DNA of 64,000 bases from Candidatus Gottesmanbacteria bacterium (GTDB taxonomy: Bacteria; Patescibacteriota; Microgenomatia; 2-02-FULL-39-11). A model generated the notes under the pieces. The model searched no databases and had not been told where the DNA came from. It saw only the letters and a program-made list of their open reading frames with translations. Shown one piece after another: positions 36,562 through 57,111 of this stretch (position 1 is its first letter; each line of letters begins with the position of its first letter). Location of the stretch: NCBI GenBank assembly GCA_016186795.1, contig JACPKY010000002.1, forward strand, positions 1,053,892-1,117,891. The letters are read 5' to 3'. Both the position numbers and the translations under genes were made by a program.

Positions 36562-38949
36562 TTACAAAAGAGTATTGACTTTATAGATTTTTGTCGTTCC
36601 AGATTCAAAGACAACATCACCAATCTCTTCCAGTTTCTCCTCATTCAGATTCTTGTATTTTTGTCGTTCAAGAGTTCCTACAAAAATATATTCAACCTTG
36701 TACTTCTTGATAATATTTCTCGTTATCTCCCTATCTTCCAATTCATACAGCTGGGCAACTTCTGGAATTCTCCTTCCTGCTTCATCGTATGAGCCTCTCC
36801 AGAGCCATTCGTGCACTGGCCAGCCAATGATAGTCGGAAGCCCGGTGTAGGCCGATACGCGTCCATAATCGGTATAGGAGTCACCGTTTGCCTCGGCAAT
36901 GACTGGCTGATTGGTACATTCTCTCCCTGTGACATCGCTGCACTGGATATTTTTATTTATCCACTCAACTGCTAGCGCATCATCAGGGTATTGATCAGAA
37001 AACCACTGGAATCCATCAAGACCACGATAGGTTCTTAGTCCACCATAGTACGAGTTAATTGCAAACAAGGGATAAATAGCAACGAGAGTAAAAAGAAAGA
37101 TAAATCCGCTGGTGTAAAGGAAATAGAACGCATACTTTCCTGTTTCTTTGGCATGAAGTTTGAGCCGGAAAACGATATATGCTGAAGATATTCCCAGCAT
37201 CATAAACGCCTGGTAACCAAGTTTAAACATCGTGTTCGCCCGATAGTGGGCAGGATAGATATCTTTCAGGTAAAAATACTCAGGAAAGATAAGAAGAAGA
37301 CTTGAAACGAAAAGAAGGATCAGAATAAACCCATCAGAGGGGAAAAGGTCAATGTAGAGAATTTTGAGGAGAAATTTTTTCCAGAAAGGAGGTGCATTTC
37401 CTTTCGATGGTACGAGCTGTTTGAAGAATTTTTTTAGCGTAAAAAGGAAAAATGCCAAAACGTTGTAGTAGAAAAATCCCCACAGAACTGCCATCATCCA
37501 GAGAGGTGATTTCTGACACTTGCCTTCCTCAAAAAGAAGCGGGCCAAGTGTCTTTCCCTCAAGCGATTTCGGAGCGCATAAAACGCCGATTCCTGAAGCA
37601 AACGGTTTGAAGTTGAGAGAAAATGGTAAACTTGCCAAAAGGAAGAAGAAAAAGAGGAAAAGACAGGAAGAAAAGGTTTTATAGAGGAGTTGGAAAAAAG
37701 TCCATGACGGATTTTTCCCAAAACTTTGCATATTTTTTAGAAATATCGTAAGTCCTGCAATAACTAAATAAATGAATCCATCCCAGGCATTGGTCATATA
37801 CATAATGGCAAGGAGTATTCCCAAGAAAAGGAGAGTAGGGAGGGCGACACCGGTATGATCTTCGAAATCTTTGGCAAATTGAGAAAGGGAAAACTGTTTG
37901 GGTGCTGGACTTTTTAATTTTTCATTTTCATCAGTCTCACGTTTTTTTGTAGCAAGAAGTGCAAGAAGAGCAAGTATCAAAAGGACCATTGGGATATCCG
38001 AGACATGGCCGTGGAGGTCTGCAACGACGAAAGAATAGATAGGGAATTCATGGATTGTGAAAGGAATAAACCTGGTTGCATTGGGATACCAGTACTTATC
38101 CGGTTCATACCCGAAAGAAAGCTTCCAGAATGGTTCCGGGTTCTCATTGGGGTAGCCAGATGTCAGAACATAAAGAGTATGGAGGTTTCCGCCAAAGGAA
38201 ACAAGAAATGCCGTCAGAAGTCCAATAACGATGTAACGGAAACGAATTGGTGGAAGGTCATCAATTTTCCCTTTCACCTTTTTTATTCCTTTTTGAACTG
38301 TTGCCGCAATAAAGGCAAGATTAAATCCAAGGGAAAATGAGAGGGTGAATGTGAAGGCAAAGACTGTTGCCATCATGAGGTTGTAGGTGATACTTGCCGG
38401 AATTCCTGAAAGCTTTGTTAAAAAGGCCATAATGTAATGGCCAAAGTAGTAATAGTTGATGAAGTACCCTCCTGGGTAATCAGGTGATTTCGTCAGCCAC
38501 ATATCGGCTGGTGGAAAAGAGGTGCCCCGAAGGATTGAGCTGACAAATCCAAAATCCATGAACTTTTCAAGACCGTGTATGGAGGGTTCATGCGCGCGAA
38601 CATATGACCAGAATCCGAGAGTGAGGAGGAAAAATAGCTCTTCTGCGATAATCAGTTTTTTTGGAAGTCTTCGAAGGGAGACTAAAAATTCAGGCTTTTT
38701 GAAAAACCAGAGACTGACAAGAAACCAAGCTAAGATGGTAAGAATAAGTGGGATGCGGGCAAATGGAAGAAGTTGAAGGCTTCCCAAAAGCCAAACGGTA
38801 TATGCAGGGAGGAGAATTCCTATAATTTTACTGAAGATAAATCCTTTGTCACGAAAATTTCCAAAGAGCGAGAGTGTTACAGGAAGAGAAATCCAGCCGA
38901 GAATGGAAATGACGAACCACCAGGTAAAGACAGAGAAAATATCGGACAT
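36562..38949 (-). CDS. Large polytopic membrane protein, putative GT-C-type glycosyltransferase (DUF2298/YYY-like) with C-terminal extracytoplasmic domain
   Basis: 795 aa with at least 15 TM helices followed by a soluble about 200-aa C-terminal domain (..GWPVHEWLWRGSYDE..). This architecture is shared with lipid-carrier-dependent GT-C transferases. Family assignment is tentative. Confidence 0.5.
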   Translation of the reverse strand: MSDIFSVFTWWFVISILGWISLPVTLSLFGNFRDKGFIFSKIIGILLPAYTVWLLGSLQLLPFARIPLILTILAWFLVSLWFFKKPEFLVSLRRLPKKLIIAEELFFLLTLGFWSYVRAHEPSIHGLEKFMDFGFVSSILRGTSFPPADMWLTKSPDYPGGYFINYYYFGHYIMAFLTKLSGIPASITYNLMMATVFAFTFTLSFSLGFNLAFIAATVQKGIKKVKGKIDDLPPIRFRYIVIGLLTAFLVSFGGNLHTLYVLTSGYPNENPEPFWKLSFGYEPDKYWYPNATRFIPFTIHEFPIYSFVVADLHGHVSDIPMVLLILALLALLATKKRETDENEKLKSPAPKQFSLSQFAKDFEDHTGVALPTLLFLGILLAIMYMTNAWDGFIYLVIAGLTIFLKNMQSFGKNPSWTFFQLLYKTFSSCLFLFFFFLLASLPFSLNFKPFASGIGVLCAPKSLEGKTLGPLLFEEGKCQKSPLWMMAVLWGFFYYNVLAFFLFTLKKFFKQLVPSKGNAPPFWKKFLLKILYIDLFPSDGFILILLFVSSLLLIFPEYFYLKDIYPAHYRANTMFKLGYQAFMMLGISSAYIVFRLKLHAKETGKYAFYFLYTSGFIFLFTLVAIYPLFAINSYYGGLRTYRGLDGFQWFSDQYPDDALAVEWINKNIQCSDVTGRECTNQPVIAEANGDSYTDYGRVSAYTGLPTIIGWPVHEWLWRGSYDEAGRRIPEVAQLYELEDREITRNIIKKYKVEYIFVGTLERQKYKNLNEEKLEEIGDVVFESGTTKIYKVNTLL

Positions 38950-38978
38950 AATGGGTATTATAGTGGCTTTTTCCTTCC

Positions 38979-39593
38979 TTGAGAAGGCAGGATTTTTTCA
39001 TCCATCGTGCTATAATGAGCGCCATGCGGACAAAGCCGATCCGGATAGGCCTTGATTTTGATGGTGTTGTTGCCTATAACCCTTTTCGGGTGGTACGAGC
39101 TCCTTGGGCGTACTTTAAACGCAATATCTTAGGGATAAAAAAACTTACCTTCTTCTATCCCCAGAATGCCAGGCAGAGGATTTTTTGGAAAATTCTTCAC
39201 CAATCAAGTATGTTTCCGGCAAACGGGGTTGATCATTTAAGAGCGCTTATTACATCGAAGGAAATAGAAGTGTATCTTATCACGGGAAGGTATGGATTTT
39301 TGCGTGATCATCTTTATCAGTGGCTTGATAGGCACGAGATGTCGAAACTTTTTCATGATATTGTTATTAATAAAAAAGATGAACAGCCGCATATTTTTAA
39401 GGAAAAAGCAATCAAAAAGATAAAGCCTGCTGTTTTTGTTGAAGATAACCTTGATATTGTAGAATATCTAAACGGTCGGACTCCTACAAAAATCTACTGG
39501 ATTTACAATATTACCGACAGGTTTCATCCCTACCCGTATAAATTTCCCTATCTTCTGAAAGCGCTGAAAGCACTTCCGAAACTATCTCCATGA
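38979..39593 (+). CDS. HAD-superfamily hydrolase (putative sugar-phosphate or nucleotide phosphatase)
   Basis: Motif I IGLDFDGVV (DxDG). About 200 aa. True start may be one of the internal Met codons (about 39015-39024) given the tight divergent spacing. Confidence 0.5.
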   Translation: MRRQDFFIHRAIMSAMRTKPIRIGLDFDGVVAYNPFRVVRAPWAYFKRNILGIKKLTFFYPQNARQRIFWKILHQSSMFPANGVDHLRALITSKEIEVYLITGRYGFLRDHLYQWLDRHEMSKLFHDIVINKKDEQPHIFKEKAIKKIKPAVFVEDNLDIVEYLNGRTPTKIYWIYNITDRFHPYPYKFPYLLKALKALPKLSP

Positions 39594-40732
39594 TCCGTGT
39601 TCTTATTACCCTGACGTATTACTCTCCATATGTATCGGGTCTGACAATGTATGTGAAGCGTCTTTCAGAACATTTAGATAAAAGGAGATTCTCGGTGAGA
39701 GTTCTTACGATGCGCCATACTGCATCGCTAAAGTCTACAGAAATTATTAATCAAATTCCAGTTATTCGAGCCTCGTATTTTGCAAAGATAAGTAAAGGGT
39801 TTCTTTCTTTTAATTATATTTGGAAAAGCTTGCAGGAAGTACGAACATGTGATGTTGTTGTTATCAATCTTCCCCAACCGGAAGGGCTATTTCCCGCTCT
39901 CTTTGCATCACTTTTTAGGAAAAAGCTTGTTTCGATCTATCATTGTGATGTCGTTTTACCACGGACACGATTGAATCAAATGATCGAAGCAATTCTTGAT
40001 GGAGTACATAGGGTGATATTGAAACGTTCAGATACGATTGTAAACAACTCATTCGATTTTGCTAAAAACTCACGGATCCTTCCACAGTTTTTGGGAAAAA
40101 CTATATATATTTATCCACCTATATATTTTCCAAAGATAGATAAACGAATACAAAATATTATCGGAAAGAAGATAAAGGGCGAAACCTTCTATTCCATTGG
40201 TATTGTGACCAGAATTGCAGCAGAGAAAGGTTTGGAGTATGTACTTGAGGCAATTCCACGTATTAGGAAACATCTGAAAGGTAAACCATTTCGTATATTC
40301 CTTGCTGGTCCGGAATCTATCGTTGGCGAGGATGCATATAGACGTATGATCATGAAACTCATGGAAAAGTACAAAGAATATATTCTCTACCTAGGACAGT
40401 TGGATGATCACGAGATGGGGGCATTCTACTCACTTCTGGATGTTCTTGCTGTTCCGTCAGTGAATTCAACTGAAGCATTCGGGATGGTACAAATTGAGGC
40501 GATGTCGTTGGGTGTTCCAGTAGTTGCAACAGATTTACCAGGTGTACGCGTGCCTATTCAGAAATCTTCTATGGGTATTATCGTTCCTCCGTACAACTCG
40601 GAGAAGTTGGCACAGGCAATTACAATGCTACTTACAAAAAGAAGCTCATATAGGCGTTTTGTCCCATTTGTACGGAGGGAATTTTCAATTGGAAAAACGA
40701 TTGGTGAGTTTCGAAAGGTTCTGGGAGGGTGA
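39590..40732 (+). CDS. GT4-family glycosyltransferase (retaining, GT-B fold)
   Basis: C-terminal EAFGMVQIEAMSLGVPVVATDLPG (E-x7-E motif region). 380 aa. ATGA overlap with the HAD gene. Confidence 0.85.
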   Translation: MIRVLITLTYYSPYVSGLTMYVKRLSEHLDKRRFSVRVLTMRHTASLKSTEIINQIPVIRASYFAKISKGFLSFNYIWKSLQEVRTCDVVVINLPQPEGLFPALFASLFRKKLVSIYHCDVVLPRTRLNQMIEAILDGVHRVILKRSDTIVNNSFDFAKNSRILPQFLGKTIYIYPPIYFPKIDKRIQNIIGKKIKGETFYSIGIVTRIAAEKGLEYVLEAIPRIRKHLKGKPFRIFLAGPESIVGEDAYRRMIMKLMEKYKEYILYLGQLDDHEMGAFYSLLDVLAVPSVNSTEAFGMVQIEAMSLGVPVVATDLPGVRVPIQKSSMGIIVPPYNSEKLAQAITMLLTKRSSYRRFVPFVRREFSIGKTIGEFRKVLGG

Positions 40733-40736
40733 ATAT

Positions 40737-41447
40737 ATGAAGGAATCTCTCTCTTATGCCAAAGTCCGACTGCACCGAGTACCATACTATATTGGATCCC
40801 TCTTTCTCCTATTTTCCTCTCTTACCTTCAAATCACGTCTAAATCTGATAGTTAATCTTATCAATCCTTTCAGAAAAACCCGTCTTATTTCTTTCAAGAA
40901 ATATCATCTCTCTTTTTGGTATAGGACGATCCTTGATCTTCTCGTTTTAAAAGAAGTCATTCTCGATGGAGAGTACACCCTTCCAGAGGTTGTCCTAACA
41001 AGAAGAGACACCGTTGTCGTTGATATAGGTGCGGGCTTTGGCGACTATGCAATCCTTATGGCAAGAAGGTTCCCGTGGGTGAAAGTTTACGCATTTGAGC
41101 CTGATCCAATGTACTTTTCGCTTTTGCAAAAAAACATTCGGCAAAACCTGGTTGGGAGTGTTTACCCGTTCAAACAGGCAGTTTCATCTATTCCTGAAAT
41201 ATTTAAAAAAGCAAAAATTTCCCGTATTGATGTTCTGAAAATGGATTGCGAAGGGTGTGAATTTAACATAATAAAAAAAGGCTCATCCCGTATGATAAAA
41301 AGAGTAGGGAAGATTGTCATGGAATATCATGAGAGGGGAGAACATACAAAGGAAAAACTTTCAGCAACCCTTGGGAGATACTTTCATCACGTGATTATTA
41401 CTTCCCAGAAGGACGTCCCGCATATCGGTCATATTTTTGCCTACTAA
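40737..41447 (+). CDS. FkbM-family SAM-dependent methyltransferase
   Basis: VVDIGAGFGDYAILMARRFPWVKVYAFEPDP (SAM-binding motif I and post-I) and FkbM-like C-terminal half. Start taken at the ATG 5 nt after the GT4 stop rather than the overlapping tracker start. Confidence 0.75.
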   Translation: MKESLSYAKVRLHRVPYYIGSLFLLFSSLTFKSRLNLIVNLINPFRKTRLISFKKYHLSFWYRTILDLLVLKEVILDGEYTLPEVVLTRRDTVVVDIGAGFGDYAILMARRFPWVKVYAFEPDPMYFSLLQKNIRQNLVGSVYPFKQAVSSIPEIFKKAKISRIDVLKMDCEGCEFNIIKKGSSRMIKRVGKIVMEYHERGEHTKEKLSATLGRYFHHVIITSQKDVPHIGHIFAY

Positions 41448-42999
41448 GAGTATTCCTTCGAAAGATTACTACGAAGATAAGAAAGAAGAGGGGAAAGTAA
41501 AACAGGAGAAGAAGGTGCAGGTTATAGATATTTGGGAACGTAGCGTCAAAGAATAGTTTTATATTGAAAGTGAGATTTTCTGGTGTGAAAAAAGGCAAAT
41601 GAAGCCAAGAAAGATAAAATCTATGCTCTCCGGAAACATGAGGGGCAAAGTGAGTGAGATTTGAATACCAGCCGTTTTCAATGGAAAAGAATATACCAAC
41701 GAGAGTGGTTATTCGGATGATAGAGATAAATAAAGTATGTTTCATTCTTGAGAGGGTATCAAGGAAAAAGCCAAATCCCAAAAGAGAGACCACAGCAACC
41801 GGAAGAAAGTAGCGTGTATCGTACATATTCGTTGCCCAAAAGATTGTTAACTTTGATGAGGCAACAAACATAATAAGGATAGAGAGAAACATGAAAATAG
41901 CTTCTCGTTTTTTTTTCTTAAGGAAGAAAATCCACCCGACTATTGCAAAAAATAGTGCCGGGGTTTGAATAAAGATTCCTTTGTAGGGCCAGACTGTTGC
42001 AAACAGTGCGCCCATTTGTCTACTTATGGTAGGGTGATCCCAGTAGAATGTGAGAAGATGTGGGTCGATTGGTCCAAAACTAAAAAGGTTGGTTGCCACA
42101 CTTGGAAGAAGAGGAGTTTGAAAAAGGTTTTCGGGATTGTTCATCCAGGTAAAGTATGCTTTATGGAGATGAGGATTGGTAAAAGGATTTCTAAATACTT
42201 TGAAATTATAGAAAAAGATACTTAAAAGCAGTGGCAGAAGTCCCAAAACAAAAAGAGAGATGGGAAGAGAACTTCTTTTTTTAAACTTTATTAAATAATA
42301 CAGAATAAAAATTGGAATAATAAAAAATTTAGAGTAATCAACATACAGGGCAAACCCTACCATAATTCCCGAGGCAAGCACGTATCTAAGTCTTACGGAA
42401 GAAATGGCAAAGTACCAGCTTAAAAGAAAAAAGGTAATAAAAGTAGGCTCTCGAAAAAAGCTGGCACTGTATTTCCACATTAGCGTTCCTGCACCTATAA
42501 TGATGGCTGTGAAAAATGAGCTTTTTTTCGATATGCCAATTTTTAAGCAGATGAGGAAAGAAATAGCAACTCCAAGTGCTCCAATTGACGCGGTTGAAAG
42601 ATAGGTAAGCGCCTGGAGAATACTGTCTTCATCAACCGCAGGATGTCTTCCTCCATAGGGATAGTTTCCCAAAGGCAAGATATGTTTTCCAGCAATGTAA
42701 AAGGGGATAGAGAGGATAGATAAACCTGGCTCACGGTCAAGATAGTAATGAGAATTAGCTAATGCATAGTCAACCCGATACGTCCACTTCCGAAAATCAT
42801 CAATTGCAAACGTTCCCTTCTCTGCAATTGCTTGAGTTAGAGCATACTGGGATCCATCAGCACTATTCATACCTCCAACAGTACTTGAAAAGTAGAGAGC
42901 CGTAAAAAGAAAGAATAGAAAAAGCGAAGCTATATTGGTAGATACAATCTGTCTCTTTCGCATGGAGAAAGTGTAGCAGAGTTGATATACTCCTTCCAT
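41398..42999 (-). CDS. Polytopic membrane protein, putative GT-C glycosyltransferase
   Basis: 533 aa with about 12-13 TM helices. N-terminal positive n-region (MRKRQ, possible real start at 42963). No soluble catalytic motifs. Placement among GT-C-like genes. Confidence 0.5.
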   Translation of the reverse strand: MEGVYQLCYTFSMRKRQIVSTNIASLFLFFLFTALYFSSTVGGMNSADGSQYALTQAIAEKGTFAIDDFRKWTYRVDYALANSHYYLDREPGLSILSIPFYIAGKHILPLGNYPYGGRHPAVDEDSILQALTYLSTASIGALGVAISFLICLKIGISKKSSFFTAIIIGAGTLMWKYSASFFREPTFITFFLLSWYFAISSVRLRYVLASGIMVGFALYVDYSKFFIIPIFILYYLIKFKKRSSLPISLFVLGLLPLLLSIFFYNFKVFRNPFTNPHLHKAYFTWMNNPENLFQTPLLPSVATNLFSFGPIDPHLLTFYWDHPTISRQMGALFATVWPYKGIFIQTPALFFAIVGWIFFLKKKKREAIFMFLSILIMFVASSKLTIFWATNMYDTRYFLPVAVVSLLGFGFFLDTLSRMKHTLFISIIRITTLVGIFFSIENGWYSNLTHFAPHVSGEHRFYLSWLHLPFFTPENLTFNIKLFFDATFPNIYNLHLLLLFYFPLFFLIFVVIFRRNTLSRQKYDRYAGRPSGK

Positions 43000-43011
43000 A
43001 CATACCGCTCT

Positions 43012-44535
43012 ATGAAAAAACAGGTTTTACTTTTTCTCATTTTGATTCTGGGGGCGATATTTCGGCTGTACCAACTTGACTCGTTACCCGGAGAAATGTG
43101 GGGAGATGTTGCGGAAGGATTTGAGTTTACCCAATTTATTTTTGATGGGAAATGGCCGTGGTATTTTGTGTTGGGTAATGGCCCCTTATTTTTCTATTTT
43201 GCAGCGGTACCCTCATTACTTCTTGGGCTATCGTTTTTTTCTCTAAAACTTTCCAGTGTTCTTATTGGTCTTGCTCTTATCTTTGTAACGTATGTATTTG
43301 CCAAGGAATTAGCTGGAACAAAAGTGGCGCTTTTGACCTCTCTTTTTATTGCCGTGTCGCGCTGGCCTGTCACACTTTCCAGACTTGGGATGATGATTAT
43401 CCTTGTTCCTTTTACTGTTATTGTCGTGTTTTACCTCCTTCTGAAAGCCTTTCAGACCAATCGTTTACGGTACTGGATAGGGAGTGGTTTGACTTTGGGT
43501 ATTGGTCTTTACAACTATCCGGTTTTTGCCATGGTCATGCCGATAACTATTTTTGTCGTTGGGATTTGCTTTCTTCTGGTGCAAAAAAGTAAAAGCACTA
43601 GGTATGTCAAAGGTATTCTTCTGGCATGCGCTGCATTTTTCCTTATCGCGTTTTCATTTATTCAGATGATCTGGGTTGAGAAAGATGTGTGGTTTGCACC
43701 GGGGAGTTACTTTGCCAGTAAATTGGTAACTGCGGATGGAACGCTTCTTCCCGACTGGAATGAACGACTGATCGACAATATTAAGCGAAGCGCTGGCATG
43801 TTCCACATCCAAGGCCACAGCTCTTTTCGAGTGAATGTCTCAAATGTTCCACATCTGGATTCCATCTCCGGAGTCTTTTTCCTTATTGGTCTTGTTTGGT
43901 GTGTTGTTCGCATGAAGAAGTATCGGTATCTTGTTTTTATCCCGCTACTTTTGTTGCAGCTGCCACAGATTTTGGTTCTGAATGTCCCTGGGGATGTGCC
44001 AAATGCCGGCCGCTCAAGCGGCGTTATACCATTCACCTATTTTCTGGTTGCAATGGGACTTATGTTTTACTATAAAGTTTTACGGCGATTCCATATTCCA
44101 TTATTTTTTTCAATCCCTCTTATTCTTATCATTTTTGCCCATGTCGTATATGTCAACACGTTTCTCTATTTTGTTACCTATGCATATGGATTACCGAATC
44201 AAAATACAGCGTACTCCAAAATTCTTGCTCGCCATATTGATGCGTTGCCACAGAATGTTTCTATCTACCTGGGAGCATGTTGTTGGGGTGATTGGGGACA
44301 GCCGGATGGAAAGCCTATCTATTTTTCACTTTCCAATAGGAAGCGGAATGTAGTTAATCAAAGGCTGGTTTCATCATGTGAAGATATTGATGCAAGACCC
44401 GCCGAAGTAATACTTTCTCCCAAAGAGAAAGAAAAAGCAGCACTTTTTGATGATTGCGGCAAGGGAACTGTCCAGACGGATTCGGAGAATGGCCAGGAAA
44501 TTTATAGTTACATTGAAATTCCAAAGACTTTTTGA
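43012..44535 (+). CDS. GT39/ArnT/PMT-like GT-C glycosyltransferase (lipid-phosphate-sugar dependent)
   Basis: N-terminal region LILILGAIFRLYQLDSLPGEMWGDVAEGFEF matches the first-loop signature of the PMT_2/ArnT family (RL..L.......DE). About 13 TM helices and a C-terminal soluble domain. Start taken at the ATG (MKKQVLL). Confidence 0.65.
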   Translation: MKKQVLLFLILILGAIFRLYQLDSLPGEMWGDVAEGFEFTQFIFDGKWPWYFVLGNGPLFFYFAAVPSLLLGLSFFSLKLSSVLIGLALIFVTYVFAKELAGTKVALLTSLFIAVSRWPVTLSRLGMMIILVPFTVIVVFYLLLKAFQTNRLRYWIGSGLTLGIGLYNYPVFAMVMPITIFVVGICFLLVQKSKSTRYVKGILLACAAFFLIAFSFIQMIWVEKDVWFAPGSYFASKLVTADGTLLPDWNERLIDNIKRSAGMFHIQGHSSFRVNVSNVPHLDSISGVFFLIGLVWCVVRMKKYRYLVFIPLLLLQLPQILVLNVPGDVPNAGRSSGVIPFTYFLVAMGLMFYYKVLRRFHIPLFFSIPLILIIFAHVVYVNTFLYFVTYAYGLPNQNTAYSKILARHIDALPQNVSIYLGACCWGDWGQPDGKPIYFSLSNRKRNVVNQRLVSSCEDIDARPAEVILSPKEKEKAALFDDCGKGTVQTDSENGQEIYSYIEIPKTF

Positions 44536-47170: not shown

Positions 47171-47184
47171 TGTAAAGGATAATT

Positions 47185-49056: not shown

Positions 49057-49145
49057 ATCGTTGAATAACTTTTTTACTATAGCATTGATTTTCTATAACA
49101 GAAAGAGAGAAGAACCAAAGAAAGAAAACTTGGCAGAGGTTGCAC

Positions 49146-49175
49146 TTGACTTTCCAGTTTATTATATCTTATAGT
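49146..49175 (+). promoter_or_regulatory. Sigma70-like promoter TTGACT-N18-TATAGT upstream of the beta-helix/PA14 gene
   Basis: Hexamers read directly. Predicted TSS about 49185, immediately before the open reading frame that continues into 49427. Confidence 0.35.
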
Positions 49176-49426
49176 GTAATTATTAATACATCCTCTCTTA
49201 CTATCTGATCAACGTTATTACGACATTTATCACTTTTGTCCTTGCAACTTCAACATTCATTGCAAGTTGGTTTCCTCAGGAGATAGTTCGTGCTGAAACT
49301 GGCGGAGTACCAGCAGTTGATGTCAATTTTAGTCAAAACGTCGAAGAGTGGTGGGCGACTCATCCATTTAATCCTCAAAATCCAAACGCCATCCCAATTG
49401 GTGGTATTTCATCACCGAGTTTCCAG

Positions 49427-51160
49427 GTGAATGTAAAAAGCCAGTTTAATAGCAATATTCAAACGGCAATTGAGTCTCTTCCTCAAAGTGGTGGAACGCT
49501 TATTTTTGATCCTGGGACGTATGTGAACAATATCTCATTGGTGGGAAGAAGTAATGTTCACTTTATCGCACCAAATGGAGGGGTTACAATCCTTGGAGGA
49601 TTTTCAACATCAAGTAGTCTTGAGACTCCTTCTAATATCGCAGGGGGACCGTTGGCGGTAAATTATAGCAGTTTCAATCGGTGTTTATTTTATAATGACG
49701 ACCCCAACCATCAAGCTTGTGTTGATACTGTTTTGAACCCAATTAAAAATATTTACTTTAAAAATATTACATTTGATGGGGAAAATGTCGCTCAGGTGGC
49801 TTTTTTTATAAGAGCTGCACGAGATGTGGTTTTTGATAGTGTAACATTCCAAAACTTTGTTGATCCCAAGGCCTATCATGCTGGTCCTGTTAATGGAAAT
49901 GCAACACTTGCCAATATCTGGTGTCGAGGTTGTCACTTCATTGGATCCCAACGGTATGCATGGGTTCTTGATGGAGTACATGGAGGAGGAATTATTAACT
50001 CTCGGGTTGAAAATGGTTTTGGTTCTGGGGCAATACTTTTTTTAACCAATGATGATTTTACGGTTGACCTTAATAAAAACGGAACGTTTGATTTAGCCGA
50101 ACAGCGTATGAGTAACTATGGAGTGGTGCATGGGAATTCATTTGCTGGAAGTTACGCCATTGTGAATGCAACTGGTGCAAATATACTTATCAAGGATAAC
50201 ACTGTTGATGGCATCATAACGAATTTCGCTACATTTGATATCCGTAATTCAAACCGCGCAGTAGCCTACGAATACTATGGAAATCGCATTGTAGAGAATA
50301 CGACAAATGGGGTAGCAAATTATTTTAGCGAGTTTGGTGGGCCGCTCCCATGTCCGAGTTCTTCTTATCCCAACCCAGATTACTGCGGTCGTATTGGAAA
50401 ATATGCAGTTCGCGCAAATACTATTAATAATTCACCAAGTCTTGATTATCTTGTCTACCATGACCCCAATACTCAGGTCGTGGATGGTCCAAATACTATC
50501 TGTGACAATATAGTGAATGGGGGTTCAAGTAGTGAAAATACTTCTAGTTGTTCTCCAACTCCCTCAAGTACTCCTACACCGTCTTTACTACCCACTCCAA
50601 CTCAGATACCGACACCTACTCCTACTCGAACACCTACACCTTCTCCTACAAAAACTTTGACCCCAACGCCAACACATACACTCACGCCGACGAAAACTAT
50701 TACACCTACACCAACTCGGACACCCACCCCAATCCTCAATGGGCTTACAGGCGTATATTTTAATAACAAAGATTTGACAGCTAAAGTACTAACACGGATT
50801 GATCCGCGCATAAATTTTCGGTGGTATCAAGCTGCACCAGCGGACTCTATGCAGGCAGATACATTCTCAATCAGATGGACCGGATTTGTAAAACCAAAGT
50901 ACTCTCAATCCTATACCTTTTACGCACAAACAGATGATGGAGTCAGACTCTGGGTTAACAATATACTCATTATTGATAAATGGGTGAATAAAGGGGCAAC
51001 TGAGGTTGCGAGTACCCCTATCAAACTTTCTGCCAACACGAAGTACCCTATAAAGATGGAGTACTACGAGAATCTCCTTGATGCAACGGCAATTCTTCGA
51101 TGGAGTTCAGGTTCGCAAGGCAAAGAAGTCATTCCGAAAGCCAGTCTATTTGTCCAATAA
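49427..51160 (+). CDS. Secreted right-handed beta-helix (pectate-lyase-like) protein with Pro/Thr-rich linker and C-terminal PA14 domain; N-terminus probably extends upstream to about 49190
   Basis: Repetitive beta-helix pattern (NI.F.G...[27 protein letters not shown]). Linker [61 protein letters not shown]14 signature YFNNKDL....FRW.G..KP..S..YTF....DDGVRLWVN...IDKW. The frame is open for 240 nt upstream, encoding a hydrophobic signal-like segment, but has no canonical in-frame start. The tracker start is GTG. Confidence 0.7.
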
Positions 51161-51173
51161 TTTCCTCCCGTTC

Positions 51174-53228
51174 TTATAAAAAAAGAGATTTATATTCTTC
51201 CTTTGTGAGCAGCTTTTCTTTTTTATAGATTCGTATAACCGGGTGATCAAAGACAGTGTACGTTTCTTCGGCAGCTTCATCTGGAATTTCCAGAAAAATA
51301 GGTCCTATCCCAATAGTTGGATACGATGAAAATTCTTCTACCTTTTCAAATCCGAGTTTCCCCGTAAATAGTAGTTCATAGTAGCGTGTAACAAGAGGAT
51401 AAGAAGAATAAAGCCTGAGGTGGTTTGCAAAGATACGCCGGGAAGGGATAAAGATGTAATCGGCTTTTGAAAGATGGGTAATAAGCTGGTTAAATAGTTC
51501 GGGTGATTCATCCAGATGATAAAAGTCAAATGAGATAACCTCAAAATCCTTTTGCGGAACTATTCCTTTCGGCAGTCCAACCGGAATGTCAACCACATTT
51601 GCAGTTTCTGAGAGTACATAGGATTTATCCGGCAGAGTAGTCCAAATCCAGTACGAGGCAGAAATACGAGAGTCTGGTTGAGAGTATATGGACATGAATG
51701 CAATGCCGGGAAGAAAAGTCAAAATGCAAAGAACAAAAATGACATATTGTGTCATGGGATCTCTCGACTTCGCTCGGGATGACATTATGAGATAGGCTAT
51801 TCGATCTATATAATAGGCGGTAAACAGAGCAAAGAAGGGTAGAATCGGTGTCATAAACCGGGTCCACTTGGCAAAAAGAAAGGCGTTGGGTAAGAGATAA
51901 ACAAGAAATGAAATCACAACGATAATCCATCCAATCCTTCCAGTCGGGAATTTCAGTTCCCGCTTTCCTTTTCGGTATGCAGTAACAAACTCTAATCCAT
52001 CTGCATAAATGATACTCAATAGATTGGATTTCTTTTTGTGTTTTCTCTGAAGTTTGTTAAGTATTTTTGATAGTTTCTTAATAAGATAAGACAAAGTATC
52101 TACAAAAATGCTTAATACTAAGATTAAAAATCCAATCAAGCCGAGAATGAACACAGGCCAGCCGAGGGCATATGGGAATACTTTCTCTATCTGGAAAAGT
52201 ATTGGTATGGAATTGACGAACTGCCGTGTGTAGAAAGCCTGGTATGTACCGGTTGCGACAGCTTGCTCATATCCGAAAACTGAACCTAAGAAGTCTTTGT
52301 AGGCAACAATGTTATAGGGAGAGGAGATGATGAAAAAGAAGCTGCTACTAACAAAAAACAATGTAACAATGAAACAATAAAATAATGAAACAATGAATTG
52401 TTTTTTCCATAGAGAACGAATAAAGAGAATAAAAAGAGTAAAAAGGGGAGGAAAGAGGAAGAAAATCCCCGTGAGTTTACTGCCAAGAGCAATTCCGATG
52501 AGGAAACTTATGAAGAGAATAAACTGTATGAATTCTAGTGTTCGAGCTTGACGGGTTACCGGCTGGTACCCGTCTTGTCGAAAACTTCTCGACGAATAGA
52601 ATACGTCGTATTTGAGCATCTTGCATGAAAAATATACAATTCCCATAAAACAGAATGTAAGAAGTGACTCAGTTGTCCCGAAATGGGCCGATTGGATAAG
52701 AGCGGGAGTAAAGGCTACCAAAGCCGCAGTTAAAAGTGAAAAGTTTATAGTGAAAAGTTGACGGGCAAGATGATAGACAAAAATAACAGTCAAAGTTGAT
52801 GCAACGGCAGACCAAAAGCGGAGCCAAAATATAGCATAGTTAAAAGATGTTGCTCGGCTCTCTTGTGAAAGATATGGGTCAGCTTCATAGATAGGAAAAA
52901 GAGGTGGAGAGAGCGTCGATATGCTTCTATGGAGCTGGTCAGAGATATAGGAAAGATAAAGAGGAAACTGTCCGTAAGCGAAAAAGTGAGGATTGAGTGT
53001 GCAATTTCCTTCATTTGTTTCAGGAGCATTATTTTTGATTGTCGTAAATTCTTTCAAAAGACACTTGCCGATCTCAGGTGGTGTTGCGGGCAGACGAAAA
53101 CGGGTAATAGCTGCGGCCATATTGCGCTCGTCAGGATCAAAGAAATAAGGGGAATCGTGCATTAAACCGTAGAAACGTGTAAAAACTGTGAAGAAAAGAA
53201 TGGCAAAAAAGACGAAGTGACTTCTCAT
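51174..53228 (-). CDS. Polytopic membrane protein, putative GT-C glycosyltransferase
   Basis: 684 aa. N-terminal FTRFYGLMHDSPYFFDPDERN loop motif. Many TM helices and a C-terminal soluble domain. Last gene of the minus-strand operon beginning at 57111. Confidence 0.55.
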   Translation of the reverse strand: MRSHFVFFAILFFTVFTRFYGLMHDSPYFFDPDERNMAAAITRFRLPATPPEIGKCLLKEFTTIKNNAPETNEGNCTLNPHFFAYGQFPLYLSYISDQLHRSISTLSPPLFPIYEADPYLSQESRATSFNYAIFWLRFWSAVASTLTVIFVYHLARQLFTINFSLLTAALVAFTPALIQSAHFGTTESLLTFCFMGIVYFSCKMLKYDVFYSSRSFRQDGYQPVTRQARTLEFIQFILFISFLIGIALGSKLTGIFFLFPPLFTLFILFIRSLWKKQFIVSLFYCFIVTLFFVSSSFFFIISSPYNIVAYKDFLGSVFGYEQAVATGTYQAFYTRQFVNSIPILFQIEKVFPYALGWPVFILGLIGFLILVLSIFVDTLSYLIKKLSKILNKLQRKHKKKSNLLSIIYADGLEFVTAYRKGKRELKFPTGRIGWIIVVISFLVYLLPNAFLFAKWTRFMTPILPFFALFTAYYIDRIAYLIMSSRAKSRDPMTQYVIFVLCILTFLPGIAFMSIYSQPDSRISASYWIWTTLPDKSYVLSETANVVDIPVGLPKGIVPQKDFEVISFDFYHLDESPELFNQLITHLSKADYIFIPSRRIFANHLRLYSSYPLVTRYYELLFTGKLGFEKVEEFSSYPTIGIGPIFLEIPDEAAEETYTVFDHPVIRIYKKEKLLTKEEYKSLFL

Positions 53229-53279
53229 TTATGTCAAAAGGCAAATCGCAAATGTCAAAACCACATTTGAGTTTTGAGA

Positions 53280-54206
53280 TTACAAAACATACAATATCAA
53301 AATCACCCCAAGTCCCCAGATGAGAATGGAGGCAATGAGAGGAATGTCTGTGGTAATAATTTTTTCAGGTCTTTCACCTTGCGTTCCTTCGTATGCAAGC
53401 TGTGTGTAGCGCATGAGTCCATAGATGATAAAGGGGATTGTCACAACAAGCCATTTTCTGTCGAGTGCCTGAGGGAGAACGGTGGTGAGAAACGAGCGGA
53501 TAGGGGCGTTAAAAGTATGAGGTTCTTCCAAGAAGGCAAAAAGCGAGTAAGCCAAAATTGCTGCAGATCCAAACATTGACGTGTAGAAATCCAAAAGATG
53601 CTCCCGGTACTGGAAAAGCGATGGTCTCGTTTTTGTTCCGGCGCCTTCGCGTAAAAGTTCTGCATGGCGTTTGGTTGACGCAACGAAAAGAGCAACGAAA
53701 AGAATGGTAAGAAATAGCCAAAATGGCAAGTGATATCCGGTAATAACCTCTCCTGCAAATGCCCGAAGAATAAATGAGAAAGCAATTCCCAAAATATCAA
53801 AGACAGCGTATTTTTTCAAAATTGTCGAGTACAAGACATGGAGGAGCGTAAAAAGTGTCGAAACAGTGAAAAAGACCGTTGAGACAAAAATAGATCCGAT
53901 AAGACCAAAAAAGACAAGAAGGAATGCCAGTTCGATGGCAGTGTTGATAGAAAGGATTCCGGCTGCAATAGGACGGTTTTTCTTGTCAGGATGTACTTGG
54001 TCGTTTTTGACATCGATGACATCATTGAAAATGTACGAAGCAGAAGAGAGAGCACAGAAAATGATAAATCCGGTCAAACTCAAAAGAAAGTACTGAGGAT
54101 CAAACAGTTTTCCATTGAAGATGATTGCGGCAAAAACAATGAAGTTTTTTACCCACTGGTTAGGGCGAAGGACTCTGAAAACCGCAGGAATCGTTTTCAC
54201 CATCAT
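53280..54206 (-). CDS. UbiA-family prenyltransferase resembling decaprenyl-phosphate 5-phosphoribosyltransferase (DPPR synthase)
   Basis: RPNQWVKNFIVFAAIIF N-terminus and NDVIDVKNDQVHPDKKNRPIAAG (NDxxDxxxD Asp-rich motif), and 8-9 TM helices. The motifs resemble the RPKQWVKN/NDxxD arrangement I recall for mycobacterial DPPR synthase (recalled from memory, not checked against a reference sequence). Confidence 0.75.
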   Translation of the reverse strand: MMVKTIPAVFRVLRPNQWVKNFIVFAAIIFNGKLFDPQYFLLSLTGFIIFCALSSASYIFNDVIDVKNDQVHPDKKNRPIAAGILSINTAIELAFLLVFFGLIGSIFVSTVFFTVSTLFTLLHVLYSTILKKYAVFDILGIAFSFILRAFAGEVITGYHLPFWLFLTILFVALFVASTKRHAELLREGAGTKTRPSLFQYREHLLDFYTSMFGSAAILAYSLFAFLEEPHTFNAPIRSFLTTVLPQALDRKWLVVTIPFIIYGLMRYTQLAYEGTQGERPEKIITTDIPLIASILIWGLGVILILYVL

Positions 54207-54231
54207 AAGGAGTATTGTATAGATTTCATAT

Positions 54232-54348
54232 ATTAAATATCAAATATCAAAATAAGTATACCCTTCTTACTGTATCCCGATTAAATCGGGATCAGTCTAG
54301 AAGGAGTTATACCCGGAGCATTTTCAAGTGCGAAGGGTATATCTATAG
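54232..54348. repeat. Intergenic composite element sharing modules with 23S intron sequences (ATTAAATATCAAATATCAAAA plus ATCCCGATTAAATCGGGA hairpin, flanked by the inverted repeat ATACCCTTC/GAAGGGTAT)
   Basis: The A/T-rich 21-mer also occurs at 27739-27759 inside the L1917 intron. The hairpin is identical to those at 28158 and 30830. Confidence 0.4.
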
Positions 54349-55275
54349 ATAATAGATGACACCTCTTGCGACTTTGTTTCTTATCGCTGAAATTGACAGG
54401 GGTAGAAGAAAAGAGAGGACAAGGATAATAATATACGGAAAGGAAGCTAAGTATTTTCGGGAAAGTAATAGGATCAGGTAGTGGTAGAGATAGATATATA
54501 ATGCATGTCTTCCTAAGAACTCAAGCGGAAATAAACGCATTTTTGACCGAAAAATCAATATAAAGGGGAAAATAAAAAGGATCGACCAGGTAAATGAAAA
54601 AAATGTCGGAGATATTTCAGGAGGAAAAGATGGTAGGATCATATAACGAATTTCAGCTGCGATAAAGACAAATGACAGGAATAAAAGTATGAATTTACCG
54701 GGCTTTATCCTTGAGTATAAGATACCCAGATAAAAGATAAACAAATAGCCAGCACCGAAGAGTCGGCCTGCAGAACTAAACGGCCACGGCGGCATGCCCA
54801 TTTCCCAAAGAAGCCAAAAAGAGATAACGAACACAACAGGAACAGAAAGAAACGGGAGTATTTTACCTTTACGGGAGATAAAGTATAAAAATGGAAAAAT
54901 AATATAGAGCTGAAGGATGAGGTTGACAAAATAAAAGGTAGGTTGAAGGGTGAAATTAAAAAGGAGTGAAGTAAGTTTTGTTAAATCAGCTTGAGGGGTA
55001 AGCAAGAAATATGCAGTTAACGCGGCAAAAATATAATCAATAAACAACCTGGACCTTTTTGAATAAAAGGAAAATAGAGAATCTTTTTTCCTGTCATATG
55101 AGGATCCATTGGTTATTCCAGCCAGGAAAATAAACCAAGGAATTGTAAAAACCAAATGTTTCCAGATGAAAGGAATCTTATATTCAGAAAAAATATCCCA
55201 AGAGTGACCCAGAACAACAGCACAAATTGCTATCCCTTTGAGTGCGTCAATCCAGTTTTGTCTTTTGGAGGACAT
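54343..55275 (-). CDS. Acyltransferase family 3 (membrane-bound O-acyltransferase, OatA/OafA-like)
   Basis: N-terminal NWIDALKGIAICAVVLGHS signature and about 10 TM helices. Confidence 0.8.
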   Translation of the reverse strand: MSSKRQNWIDALKGIAICAVVLGHSWDIFSEYKIPFIWKHLVFTIPWFIFLAGITNGSSYDRKKDSLFSFYSKRSRLFIDYIFAALTAYFLLTPQADLTKLTSLLFNFTLQPTFYFVNLILQLYIIFPFLYFISRKGKILPFLSVPVVFVISFWLLWEMGMPPWPFSSAGRLFGAGYLFIFYLGILYSRIKPGKFILLFLSFVFIAAEIRYMILPSFPPEISPTFFSFTWSILFIFPFILIFRSKMRLFPLEFLGRHALYIYLYHYLILLLSRKYLASFPYIIILVLSFLLPLSISAIRNKVARGVIYYL

Positions 55276-55276
55276 C

Positions 55277-56689
55277 TTATTTGACTACATACTTTGCAAC
55301 CTCTTCTCCCATTTCTATTGCATAGTTTGTGCCTCGATCCCACGGATATACCATATCCATATTGGCTAAATACACGTGAGGGATAGGGGTATCAAATGGT
55401 GGTCGGATTTTGGAGTAGTTAAGGGGGAATACTGGTTGGGCGAAGGGACCCAAGAATAATTTACAATTTACTCCGCCAGCTGGCGGATGAAAATTAGGAT
55501 TAATTTTTATAAGATAGGGGAGGTAGGTTTCGAATATTTCTTTTGTAGACATTTTCAAATAGGGGTGGCCGGGCGGGAGGTAATTGGCAACCCACGCCAG
55601 GTGATTCCCACCGTAGTATTTCGGATCAATCATATTGGTTTGTTGAATAACTGCAATAAAGGGGAATGTCCGGTCATTTATATTGAGCCAGTATTCTTTG
55701 TCCAGAAATTTTTCTTTGGTAACAAGAAGAAGATTAAGGGCATGGAGATGGGGGATAGAGAGTAGATTTTTTGAATATTGTGCCCAACTTTTACTATTTT
55801 CCAGCGGGTCCTGCCGCTCGCGTATCCCATGAACTTGGTTCAGATCGCTCGCGAATTGAGTCAACTTGCTCCATAATCTCTTAGTCGCTCGCTCTCCCTT
55901 CGGTGAACCTCGCCATGGGAATCCCTCGCTTGCGTCACCCGCCAAATTTGAGATTTCTTTCTCAAACATCTTTACAAATACTACTGATGGGGTTGTGACA
56001 ATGACACAATCATATTTACTTATATCAGCAATATTAAATGTAGTATCTGTATAAATTTTCCCTCCATTTTTATTGATTTGAGAAGCAACAGCATCAACAA
56101 GTACTTTGTATCCGCCTTCAAGGTACCCAAGACGAAGAGTTCGTTTTTTTATTCTCGCCCAAAACCATGCCATGTTAATTAAAGAGGCATATTTCCCAAA
56201 TTTTCCCTTCAAAAGGGGCTCCCAGATGATTTTATACGCTTTTCCCCCATACAATTTTTGGGAAAAATCTATCGCCTTGTATTTCTCAAGATTTTGTCCT
56301 CCACTTTTTGAGAGCATTTTTAAATAAACTGTTGCCAAGCCAAATCTTACACGATCAACAATTGGTAGTGCAGAGAAAGAAAGTATCTGAGAAGGGGTAT
56401 TGAACGGGTACGATTTCCCACCGTAGTAAATCGATGTTAACGTCTTTGGGAAAATGAGTTTATCTTCAAGTCCAAGGTCTTTAATAAGACCTAGAGCCGC
56501 ATCATCATTCGTAAACCAGTGATGGTAGTGCTGTTCCACTTGCCACTTCCAGCTGGGAAGTTTGAAAGATCCAGCAAGACCTCCAAGAAACTTTTCCTTC
56601 TCAAAAAGAGATACCTGATTTCCGGATTTTGTGAGACTGTAAGCTGCAGAAAGTCCGGTAAATCCGCCACCGATGACTGCGATATTCAT
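55277..56689 (-). CDS. FAD/NAD(P)-binding oxidoreductase (amine-oxidase / CrtI / protoporphyrinogen-oxidase-like fold)
   Basis: N-terminal dinucleotide motif MNIAVIGGGFTGLSAAYSL and a GGKAYK-type second motif. 470 aa. Contains the tCCGCCAGCTGGCGGa palindrome in frame (HPPAGGVN). Confidence 0.65.
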   Translation of the reverse strand: MNIAVIGGGFTGLSAAYSLTKSGNQVSLFEKEKFLGGLAGSFKLPSWKWQVEQHYHHWFTNDDAALGLIKDLGLEDKLIFPKTLTSIYYGGKSYPFNTPSQILSFSALPIVDRVRFGLATVYLKMLSKSGGQNLEKYKAIDFSQKLYGGKAYKIIWEPLLKGKFGKYASLINMAWFWARIKKRTLRLGYLEGGYKVLVDAVASQINKNGGKIYTDTTFNIADISKYDCVIVTTPSVVFVKMFEKEISNLAGDASEGFPWRGSPKGERATKRLWSKLTQFASDLNQVHGIRERQDPLENSKSWAQYSKNLLSIPHLHALNLLLVTKEKFLDKEYWLNINDRTFPFIAVIQQTNMIDPKYYGGNHLAWVANYLPPGHPYLKMSTKEIFETYLPYLIKINPNFHPPAGGVNCKLFLGPFAQPVFPLNYSKIRPPFDTPIPHVYLANMDMVYPWDRGTNYAIEMGEEVAKYVVK

Positions 56690-57111
56690 TGTCCAAACTG
56701 GACTGAGGGAGAGTTCGCAATGGTGATGTTACTTCCTTGGTCAACTGCAGTAACTTGCGCTTTGCCCGAGATAGCCGATGAAAGCGTAAACTCTGCCATG
56801 CCGTTTTCATTGGTTGTAATCGTGTTTGAAGGGAGAATTGTGACGTTTGAGAGAGTACTTGAAAGGTTAACACCTCGATTGGCCATGACTTTGCCGCTTT
56901 CATCCCGAATATAGACGGTAACTTTTATATTTCCGTCAACTGGGACAATACCTCCGGTTGGGTAGTGGGCGATGACAAACGATTTTGTCGGTGATGGGAC
57001 TGTTGCACGTGCCTGAAAAATGCTTGTTGGTTGGACAGACAGAGCAACCATTGCTGCGGCAAAGAGGAAGAAAAAGAGGGCAGACAAAACCAGGAACTTT
57101 TTGTCTTTCAT
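56686..57111 (-). CDS. Small secreted protein with bacterial Ig-like (invasin/intimin-type) beta-sandwich domain
   Basis: Signal peptide MKDKKFLVLSALFFFLFAAAMVALSV (an alternative start 13 codons upstream gives MKTNAKIRSRS...), then an Ig-like pattern (VTVYIRDESGKVMANRGVNLS...AEFTLSS.ISG.A.VTA). Confidence 0.45.
   Translation of the reverse strand: MKDKKFLVLSALFFFLFAAAMVALSVQPTSIFQARATVPSPTKSFVIAHYPTGGIVPVDGNIKVTVYIRDESGKVMANRGVNLSSTLSNVTILPSNTITTNENGMAEFTLSSAISGKAQVTAVDQGSNITIANSPSVQFGQ

Follow-up and report, generated by a model that had tools for sequence, protein, structure and literature searches.

What does a bacterium of the Candidate Phyla Radiation (CPR) build with a 20-kb cluster of membrane glycosyltransferases? 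We addressed this question for a 64,000-nucleotide stretch of DNA from a Candidatus Gottesmanbacteria genome (GenBank assembly GCA_016186795.1, contig JACPKY010000002.1, positions 1,053,892 to 1,117,891), here called the window, in which positions 36562–57111 encode a UbiA-family protein, a flavin adenine dinucleotide (FAD) oxidoreductase, a family 2 glycosyltransferase (GT2) and six large polytopic proteins. Judged from protein families, conserved residues and gene order, this locus is probably a conserved set of operons with which Microgenomates glycosylate acceptors outside the cytoplasm, using monosaccharides linked to polyprenyl phosphate as donors and surface proteins as the most likely acceptors. 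We assigned families to the window proteins with Pfam and NCBIfam, took solved relatives from the PDB and compared profiles with hhalign. For conservation, we assembled 46 related loci (43 fetched by alignment of UbiA orthologues and three by exact-protein look-up) and searched their open reading frames (ORFs) with the window proteins and family hidden Markov models (HMMs). An initial annotation had listed the genes of the locus and likened them to the arabinan and O-mannosylation toolkit of mycobacteria; all of its ORFs are real and were located at, or a few codons from, the positions first given, with some starts refined by orthologues.

Putative donor-lipid enzymes and PMT-like transferases

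The UbiA protein (53280–54206, minus strand) is supported by its sequence as a relative of the polyprenyl-phosphate 5-phosphoribosyltransferases (PPPRS), of which decaprenyl-phosphate phosphoribosyltransferase (DPPR synthase) is the mycobacterial form named in the initial annotation. Its best NCBIfam models are both of decaprenyl-phosphate phosphoribosyltransferase (NF008977, E 8.8e-60; NF008978, E 2.2e-58). The third match, NF006088 (4.7e-46), is a 482-residue model matched in its C-terminal half only; ordinary prenyltransferase models in NCBIfam reach 1.9e-16 at best, and Pfam PF01040 is matched at E 2.8e-21. The closest solved relative is Mycobacterium tuberculosis Rv3806c (PDB 8j8j, E 2.3e-32), followed by DGGGP synthase at 1.8e-5. 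In the NDxxDxxxD motif, N61, D62, D65 and D69 are invariant in 17 orthologues. Taking residue roles from the Rv3806c structure (PMC10994848), we mapped the contacts to phosphoribosyl pyrophosphate (PRPP) ribose, 5-phosphate, pyrophosphate and lipid phosphate by hand through the UbiA/Rv3806c alignment, and found 10 of 13 to be identical (R22, K28, Y70, N73, D77, K87, R90, Y138, K143 and K191). Two contacts are changed, Q135 to His and Y157 to Phe, the latter variant also occurring in some mycobacteria (PMC10994848); K208 of Rv3806c is not kept, and an invariant Arg (R194) adjoins its position. The mapped positions are invariant across the 17 orthologues, which range from 62% to 100% identity. 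Across the UbiA superfamily at large, the sites that bind phosphoribose are not conserved (PMC10994848), so that their retention here argues specifically for PRPP as the donor.

We then asked whether the six large polytopic proteins, each with 9–12 hydrophobic segments in a crude Kyte-Doolittle scan, are GT-C-type transferases, as initially proposed. For five of them (B to F) the proposal held, and they are PMT/ArnT-type GT-C enzymes. Protein F (51174–53228, minus strand) scores above the gathering threshold of PF02366 (PMT; 35.5 bits against a cut-off of 22.7, E 1e-8), and also matches PMT_2 (1.2e-6); its first loop contains a PDE motif, and its C-terminal outer domain spans 170 aa. Its paralogue E (47185–49056, minus strand; first-loop motif HPDER) aligns with it over the full length (blastp E 5e-34; hhalign 100%). 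The best solved relative of a joint E/F profile is yeast Pmt1 (1.8e-7), with ArnT (3.7e-5) and Pmt2 also found, and its R...PDE first-loop motif (R18, P32, D33, E34) is invariant. Pfam matches of E and F comprise only PMT, PMT_2 and TMEM260-like families, with neither a luminal MIR domain nor a PMT_4TMC C-terminal module among them. Protein C (43012–44535, plus strand; PMT_2, 4.8e-12) is present in most related loci and matches D at 99.7% and E at 98.8% in hhalign. For D (44775–46442, minus strand), most homologues carry PF13231 (PMT_2), and the top Foldseek matches of its AF2 model (pLDDT 94) are all GT-C enzymes (STT3, ArnT at a TM-score of 0.56, PglB, AglB and ALG12), with AftA and EmbA/B/C ranking lower. 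DE, DD or D acidic motifs follow the first transmembrane (TM) segment in the GT-C proteins; these motifs, the family matches and the fold modelled for D support the GT-C proposal. Protein B (41398–42963, minus strand), a variable accessory, has no Pfam match of its own and is the most distant PMT_2-type relative: 4 of 59 sampled sequences among its 1735 relatives match PMT_2, its profile finds TMEM260 (E 0.003) with a weak tie also to Pmt1, and hhalign links it to C, D and F at 96–98% probability.

The sixth protein (A; 36562–38949, minus strand) did not bear out the GT-C proposal in the same way. It is a full-length member of TIGR03662 (Chlor_Arch_YYY; 492.9 bits against a cut-off of 300.25, E 2.1e-147) and of Pfam DUF2298 (E 4e-97), with N165, Y166, Y167 and Y168 invariant. 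Its only tie to the others is a weak, collinear hhalign match to E (71–85% probability), and its profile gave noise only against the PDB, with no solved relative; it is possibly a very distant GT-C. Chloroflexi and Archaea carry gene pairs of TIGR03662 and the Agl23-like TIGR03663, both of which are of unknown or loosely assigned function. Protein A resembles the first partner of these pairs, whereas the nearby PMT_2-type protein C matches TIGR03663 only weakly (31.6 bits), far under the cut-off of 126, and hence is no member.

Three further enzymes accompany the polytopic proteins. The GT2 (46439–47170, minus strand; Glycos_transf_2, 1.5e-27) is a 243-aa protein with no hydrophobic segment, and its sequence supports the Dpm1/GtrB-like, polyprenyl-phosphate-sugar synthase kind first proposed for it. 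Its best solved relatives are ArnC (8.6e-13), Pyrococcus DPMS (9e-11) and GtrB (1.9e-10), and its NCBIfam matches (AglJ, ArnC, PpgS and dolichyl-phosphate hexose transferase) all fall under the equivalog cut-offs; lacking the C-terminal transmembrane hairpin of GtrB and ArnC, it resembles the short Dpm1-type enzymes. The 189-aa product of 39024–39593 (plus strand) gave no match in Pfam up to E 10, in a PDB phmmer search or with an eight-sequence profile. Its identity was resolved by a structure model (pLDDT 91), whose fold is unmistakably that of a HAD phosphatase and in which a DxDG motif is invariant, in line with the initial annotation. Its stop codon overlaps the start of a GT4 Leloir glycosyltransferase gene (39590–40732, plus strand; Glycos_transf_1, 2.8e-27) placed at a cytoplasmic step, and this adjacency is conserved. 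In the related locus L021 the two are a single 557-aa ORF (16912–18585, minus strand; HAD-like 6–154, GT4 184–556), which suggests that both work on the same substrate.

Gene order and surface-protein neighbours in related genomes

The genes of the locus fall into three transcription blocks: Big_1, FAD, acyltransferase-3, UbiA and F on the minus strand from 57111 to 51174; E, GT2 and D on the minus strand from 49056 to 44775; and a mixed block of C(+), B(−), FkbM(+), GT4(+), HAD(+) and DUF2298(−). Adjoining genes overlap by 4 nt at Big_1/FAD, GT2/D and HAD/GT4, with D translationally coupled to GT2, and the intergenic gaps leave no room for a further small gene.

Much of this arrangement recurs elsewhere. 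Of the 30 Microgenomates loci that could be assessed, 24 have the FAD gene upstream of UbiA and in the same orientation, at a distance within 700 nt in 22. UbiA is directly followed by an F/E-type GT-C gene in 24 of 28 loci, and F and E adjoin in at least 16. Gottesmanbacteria and Shapirobacteria-type genomes share the order FAD-UbiA-GT-C-GT-C, followed by C, HAD and/or GT4, and DUF2298, at UbiA identities down to 44–56%. Because the core order recurs in 22–24 of about 30 loci, the arrangement is not a matter of chance. The core (FAD, UbiA, F, E, C, HAD and/or GT4, and DUF2298) is a lineage trait and not an oddity of one CPR genome, where the initial annotation had taken such a system to be unusual. 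Big_1 lies directly upstream of FAD in Gottesmanbacteria loci; B, D, GT2 and FkbM vary among the related loci, and neither an acyltransferase-3 counterpart nor the PA14 protein described below occurs in any of the 46. Roizmanbacteria have the FAD-UbiA pair only; the gene after UbiA there (L026, L028) was tried as a divergent GT-C and rejected, since no profile matches it and it has no more than a single TM segment. Further afield, an epimerase gene of the short-chain dehydrogenase/reductase (SDR) type directly follows the UbiA relative in a Phycisphaerae metagenome-assembled genome (MAG), another lies near it in a Gaiellaceae MAG, and PMT_2 and GT2 genes flank it in a deltaproteobacterial MAG. 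In the literature we found nothing relevant on UbiA-glycosyltransferase or arabinofuranose systems of CPR/Patescibacteria, and only unrelated work on DUF2298.

Which acceptors would such transferases serve? The initial annotation had proposed PMT-type glycosylation of proline/threonine (P/T)-rich linkers in two secreted proteins of the window. The linkers are real: they reach 78% P+T over 40 aa in the PA14-domain protein (49427–51160, plus strand; C-terminal PA14 domain, E 1.9e-27; P/T-rich linker of 65 aa) and 68% in the NHL protein (2634–5540). Secretion was not borne out, as neither protein has an N-terminal hydrophobic signal even in its longest possible ORF, and the supposed beta-helix part of the PA14 protein matches no family. 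The PA14 gene, which runs in the other direction, takes up the very spot at which F and E otherwise adjoin; it splits this pair, is absent from all related loci and is probably not part of the core, and its position is weak evidence for its product as a substrate. Independent support for P/T-rich surface proteins as targets comes from other genomes, where P/T-rich anchored proteins are neighbours of the core.

Those genomes place surface proteins directly beside the conserved genes. In two Gottesmanbacteria loci (L008:2324-9837; L017:2581-9950), a complete type IV pilus set separates FAD from UbiA; it shares their strand, and no gap exceeds 85 nt. PilB (T2SSE, 1.9e-127) and PilC (T2SSF, 3.3e-49) belong to it, along with four or five ORFs whose N-termini are of the GFTLIE prepilin type, and a prepilin gene of 149 or 165 aa directly precedes UbiA-F-E; these sets also include a 660-aa, minor-pilin-like protein with LVIVD repeats. 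At least six Shapirobacteria-type loci carry a PilO-like gene (PF04350, 1.8e-5) and a TM-anchored fn3/Ig protein upstream. In three Shapirobacteria-type loci, the gene directly before FAD encodes an apparently mucin-like, sortase-type anchored protein of 158–209 aa with an N-terminal anchor and a region of 70–83% Pro+Thr (L021:7844-8473, L023:4476-4958, L025:8205-8681), ending in LP(P/E)AG and a hydrophobic tail that resembles a sortase signal. A canonical LPATG occurs at L025:966-2069. We tried the small PT-rich proteins of Shapirobacteria type as homologues of Big_1 and detected no relationship beyond the N-terminal anchor (hhalign 36%). These pilus and P/T-rich anchored neighbours favour surface proteins as acceptors. 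Type IV pilins and/or anchored P/T-rich or Ig-like proteins are thus the most likely targets and a free lipoglycan a less likely one, with P/T-rich surface proteins and type IV pilins equally plausible.

The flavoenzyme and the proposed pathway

The FAD enzyme (55277–56689, minus strand) belongs fully to NCBIfam NF005560, scoring 371 bits where the cut-off is 252, and matches Pfam Amino_oxidase/NAD_binding_8. Against the PDB its profile is of the amine-oxidase/PPOX/phytoene-desaturase/UGM type, with a full-length alignment to phytoene desaturase 5mog. This amine-oxidase-type fold is not the FAD_binding_4 (VAO) fold of DprE1, and the initial reading of the enzyme as a DprE1-type epimerase fails accordingly. 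A VAO-type oxidase elsewhere in the window (7847–9262) was considered as a remote DprE1 and rejected, being GlcD-like with FAD-oxidase_C and lying 45 kb away beside a 2-hydroxyacid dehydrogenase; the pair occupies 6061–9262, where a 615-aa 2-hydroxyacid dehydrogenase-HAD hydrolase fusion is followed by the overlapping 471-aa oxidase. With no DprE2 reductase and a flavoenzyme not of the DprE1 kind, epimerisation to arabinose is not supported. The FAD protein also has a 59-aa in-frame insertion (aa 246–304, window 55778–55954) with a GC content of 0.525 against about 0.40 locally, which is present in none of 11 aligned orthologues and not repeated elsewhere in the window.

Outside the CPR, homologues of this flavoenzyme occur in polyprenyl-phosphate-sugar cassettes. 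All four annotated plasmid homologues that we inspected (Agrobacterium pDG3-1a, Burkholderia stagnalis plas2, Rhodobacteraceae pSC52_3 and Rhizobium tumorigenes pRt932), with 24–27% identity over the full length and family-HMM E-values of 1e-70 to 1e-75, sit in a six-gene cassette ordered HAD-UbiA fusion, FAD_binding_4, SDR, NAD-epimerase, FAD homologue, GtrA. From its genes, this cassette (L048:2446-8628; also L049, L051 and L052), which is followed by unassigned proteins of 530–710 aa, appears to be an elaborate, uncharacterised pentofuranose-donor pathway. It shares with our locus the FAD homologue and a PPPRS-type UbiA. It differs in having DprE1/E2-like genes, an SDR epimerase, a GtrA flippase and a UbiA fused to HAD, and in lacking detectable homologues of the PMT-like E and F. 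In Embleya, the FAD homologue is preceded by genes for a DegT aminotransferase and an ArnC-like, ArnC-sized GT2. Given this company, the FAD enzyme very probably acts on a lipid-linked monosaccharide donor. We found no relevant account of the family (PRK07233) in the literature; the plasmid cassette is annotated and apparently uncharacterised, and Kelly et al. 2024 (PMC11127046) do not mention such a flavoenzyme in their main text.

From the observed families and folds, active-site residues and synteny we infer every substrate and product of the following pathway. At the cytoplasmic face, the UbiA-type enzyme would move ribose-5-phosphate from PRPP to polyprenyl phosphate, as its sequence and conserved active-site residues suggest. 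A phosphatase would take off the 5-phosphate, the HAD-fold protein being the sole candidate in the locus. The flavoenzyme would then modify the lipid-linked pentose, our best guess from gene order in CPR and Proteobacteria being oxidation or epimerisation, and the Dpm1/ArnC-like GT2 would make a second donor, a polyprenyl-phosphate hexose. Both donors would be flipped across the membrane by a protein not among the locus genes, and F, E and C, together with the variable B and D and perhaps the DUF2298 protein, would pass the sugars on to acceptors on its outer side. A primer sugar may come from GT4, methylation from FkbM and acylation from acyltransferase-3.

Among published schemes, the three-component pentofuranose system comes closest (Kelly et al. 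2024, PMC11127046). In it, polyprenyl-P-ribose-5-P is formed from PRPP by a synthase of the UbiA type and loses its phosphate through a HAD domain; the pentose may then be altered by an epimerase, and after export of the donor by a flippase a GT-C transfers the sugar outside the membrane. In Citrobacter youngae O1/O2, the PPPRS is ORF15, which includes a HAD phosphoribose-phosphatase domain, the flippase is of the MATE kind and the GT-C is ORF12/GT136 (PMC11127046). The locus shares with this scheme a UbiA-type PPPRS with predicted PRPP use, a HAD-fold phosphatase, GT-C final transferases and an optional donor-modifying redox enzyme, and the SDR epimerase, PMT_2 and GT2 neighbours of distant UbiA relatives fit it as well. 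It differs in that HAD is separate and linked or fused to GT4 rather than UbiA, no MATE or GtrA flippase is present, 4–6 PMT/ArnT-like GT-Cs stand in place of one GT136, an amine-oxidase-type flavoenzyme replaces SDR or DprE1/E2, and the host is a monoderm CPR bacterium whose acceptor is not an O antigen.

Two other systems invite comparison. The mycobacterial DPA/arabinan/LAM pathway (Rv3806c, Rv3807c, DprE1/DprE2, Emb/Aft, Ppm1, Pmt) supplies the closest solved UbiA relative and likewise combines several GT-Cs with a GT2 polyprenyl-phosphate-hexose synthase and a GT4; in contrast to it, our locus has no DprE1 (VAO fold), DprE2 or PAP2 phosphatase, and its GT-Cs are PMT_2/PMT-like rather than of the Emb/Aft families. 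D-arabinofuranosylation of group IV pilin in Pseudomonas aeruginosa involves TfpW with PsPA7_6246-6249, and Pseudomonas indica and Kingella denitrificans have pilA, tfpW and the D-arabinofuranose genes in a cluster (bioRxiv 10.1101/2020.04.19.049825). There a GT-C uses a PPPRS-derived lipid-linked pentofuranose on a type IV pilin, and the prepilin gene directly before UbiA-F-E in L008 and L017 mirrors the TfpW clusters. Unlike those clusters, the window has no GT-C gene beside a pilin gene, an arrangement met only in these two relatives. The motif of E and F is DE and their C-terminal domain is not of the TPR kind, whereas TfpW has a DDX motif and TPR repeats, and DprE1/E2 and GtrA are absent from the locus and window.

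Several accessory genes complete the locus. The FkbM-family S-adenosylmethionine-dependent methyltransferase (40737–41447, plus strand; TIGR01444, E 4.6e-23; Methyltransf_21) recurs in several related loci. The acyltransferase-3 membrane protein (54343–55275, minus strand; Acyl_transf_3, E 5e-22), a variable accessory, is probably a glycan O-acyltransferase. For these two, as for GT4 and the FAD oxidoreductase, the families first assigned are confirmed by Pfam and NCBIfam matches. The small membrane-anchored Big_1 (Ig-like) protein (56686–57111, minus strand; E 7.5e-11), product of the first gene of its operon, has one TM segment followed by a conserved PSPxKSF stretch; its start at 57111 agrees with orthologues, and it is a candidate acceptor or accessory protein.

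The surroundings of the locus hold further features. Adjoining it at 57020–57715 is a homologue of the 23S-rRNA-intervening-sequence protein (PF05635), followed at 57612–63617 by a 2001-aa protein with seven LamG/Laminin_G_3 repeats and DUF2341, probably a giant surface protein. On the other side, 35347–36561 comprises 1.2 kb without a convincing ORF, in which a GC-rich segment (about 35430–35540) folds better than shuffles (z −3.08); Rfam gave no match in the ORF-poor gap 35300–36600, even at E up to 1. The 23S rRNA gene (25654–31453) is split by at least two group I introns (28035–28250 and 30673–30925) and contains LAGLIDADG homing-endonuclease ORFs (28904–29491 and 29790–30395), as is usual in CPR. 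The Rfam LSU match stops at 28861, though the gene evidently goes on; tRNA-Ala (25225–25299) lies upstream and 5S rRNA (31337–31453) downstream.

Alternative products and significance

Several observations weigh against extracytoplasmic glycosylation of surface proteins from such donors. The UbiA protein scores just under the equivalog cut-offs of its two best models (202.6 against 234 for NF008977; 197.7 against 207 for NF008978), even though these are by far its top-scoring models. The HAD gene lies 14 kb from UbiA, neither adjacent nor fused to it, and is translationally coupled to GT4. The HAD enzyme is therefore maybe not a phosphoribose phosphatase, and it may serve the GT4 step rather than, or besides, dephosphorylating the phosphoribosyl lipid. 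Neither the locus nor the window encodes DprE1, DprE2 or an SDR epimerase, or a GtrA, SMR, MATE or Wzx flippase. As the plasmid FAD homologue coexists with DprE1/E2-like genes, the family is not simply their substitute, and the FAD enzyme here is probably not one either. The window has no pilin, PilB, PilC or PilO genes, and the number of GT-Cs, with GT4, methyltransferase and acyltransferase, would also suit a polysaccharide or lipoglycan.

This last point leads to the most serious alternative, in which the donor chemistry is the same and the product is a membrane lipoglycan or wall polysaccharide (lipomannan/lipoarabinomannan- or arabinan-like) instead of a glycoprotein. GT4 would start a glycolipid primer inside, the GT-Cs would extend it outside with hexose and pentofuranose, and methylation and acylation would follow. 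The toolkit does parallel that for mycobacterial lipomannan and lipoarabinomannan (PimA-like GT4, Ppm1-like GT2, UbiA DPPR synthase and many GT-Cs; PMC11127046). Four to six GT-C enzymes per locus with FkbM and acyltransferase-3 fit such a product, as does the absence of pilus genes from the window, and ArnT, whose acceptor is a lipid, is as close a solved relative as Pmt1. Against this, the locus encodes neither machinery to export or ligate a polymer nor anything related to phosphatidylinositol, the genes conserved upstream code for surface proteins and parts of the pilus rather than lipid enzymes, and E and F have a PMT-type DE motif with Pmt1 as their best solved relative; we regard a lipoglycan or wall polysaccharide as doubtful, while giving it real weight.

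The initial annotation's own model, a mycobacterium-like D-arabinofuranose pathway with a DprE1-type FAD enzyme and PMT-like enzymes O-glycosylating the PA14 and NHL linkers, seems unlikely to us. It can draw on the DPPR-synthase-like UbiA, on the existence of PT linkers and PMT-like enzymes, and on the P/T-rich proteins that are conserved neighbours in other genomes. The fold of the flavoenzyme, the lack of DprE2, the GlcD-like nature of the only VAO-type enzyme in the window, the sporadic PA14 gene and the want of a recognisable signal peptide in either linker protein all speak against it; with neither DprE1 nor DprE2, neither an arabinan-type pathway nor arabinose as its sugar is upheld. 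It is more improbable still, to a degree at which we give it hardly any credence, that UbiA and FAD form an isoprenoid-lipid pathway (prenyl transfer with CrtI/GGR-like desaturation or reduction, yielding a quinone, carotenoid or ether lipid) and that the glycosyltransferases are nearby by coincidence. Pairs of UbiA and phytoene-desaturase-like flavoenzymes are known in carotenoid and archaeal lipid pathways, and the FAD family does align with phytoene desaturase over its full length. UbiA, however, fits PPPRS models at least 40 orders of magnitude better than any prenyltransferase model and keeps the ribose-5-phosphate contacts that the wider superfamily does not (PMC10994848), the FAD-UbiA-GT-C order is conserved, and the proteobacterial FAD homologue sits between sugar epimerases and a GtrA flippase.

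Glycosylation of surface proteins from polyprenyl-phosphate-linked monosaccharides is thus the reading that we prefer. A more specific form of it is put forward only tentatively: in a lipid-linked pentose pathway of a kind not recognised before, the amine-oxidase-fold flavoenzyme would convert polyprenyl-phosphoribose to a new donor sugar, which the PMT-like GT-Cs would attach to type IV pili and to P/T-rich stalk proteins anchored by sortase. If this form holds, no surface-glycosylation system of the CPR would have been defined earlier. Lipid-linked pentofuranose donors with GT-C transferases are already known from mycobacteria, Pseudomonas pili and enterobacterial O antigens. New here are the CPR host, the conservation across Microgenomates, the PMT-like GT-C paralogues with DUF2298, and a system that lacks the known epimerases and flippases and is built around an unassigned flavoenzyme family also found in proteobacterial cassettes.

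CPR bacteria, whose genomes measure about 1 Mb, use their surface and pili to live attached to hosts, and this genome spends about 2% of its DNA on a conserved donor-lipid/GT-C system. For the envelope glycans of these bacteria, the locus offers a testable entry point with defined enzymes, predicted donors and candidate acceptors. Because the flavoenzyme recurs in pentofuranose-donor operons of cultured Proteobacteria, its chemistry is tractable there, and it may add a sugar or a step to the Rv3806c/DprE1 paradigm, a drug-target pathway in tuberculosis.

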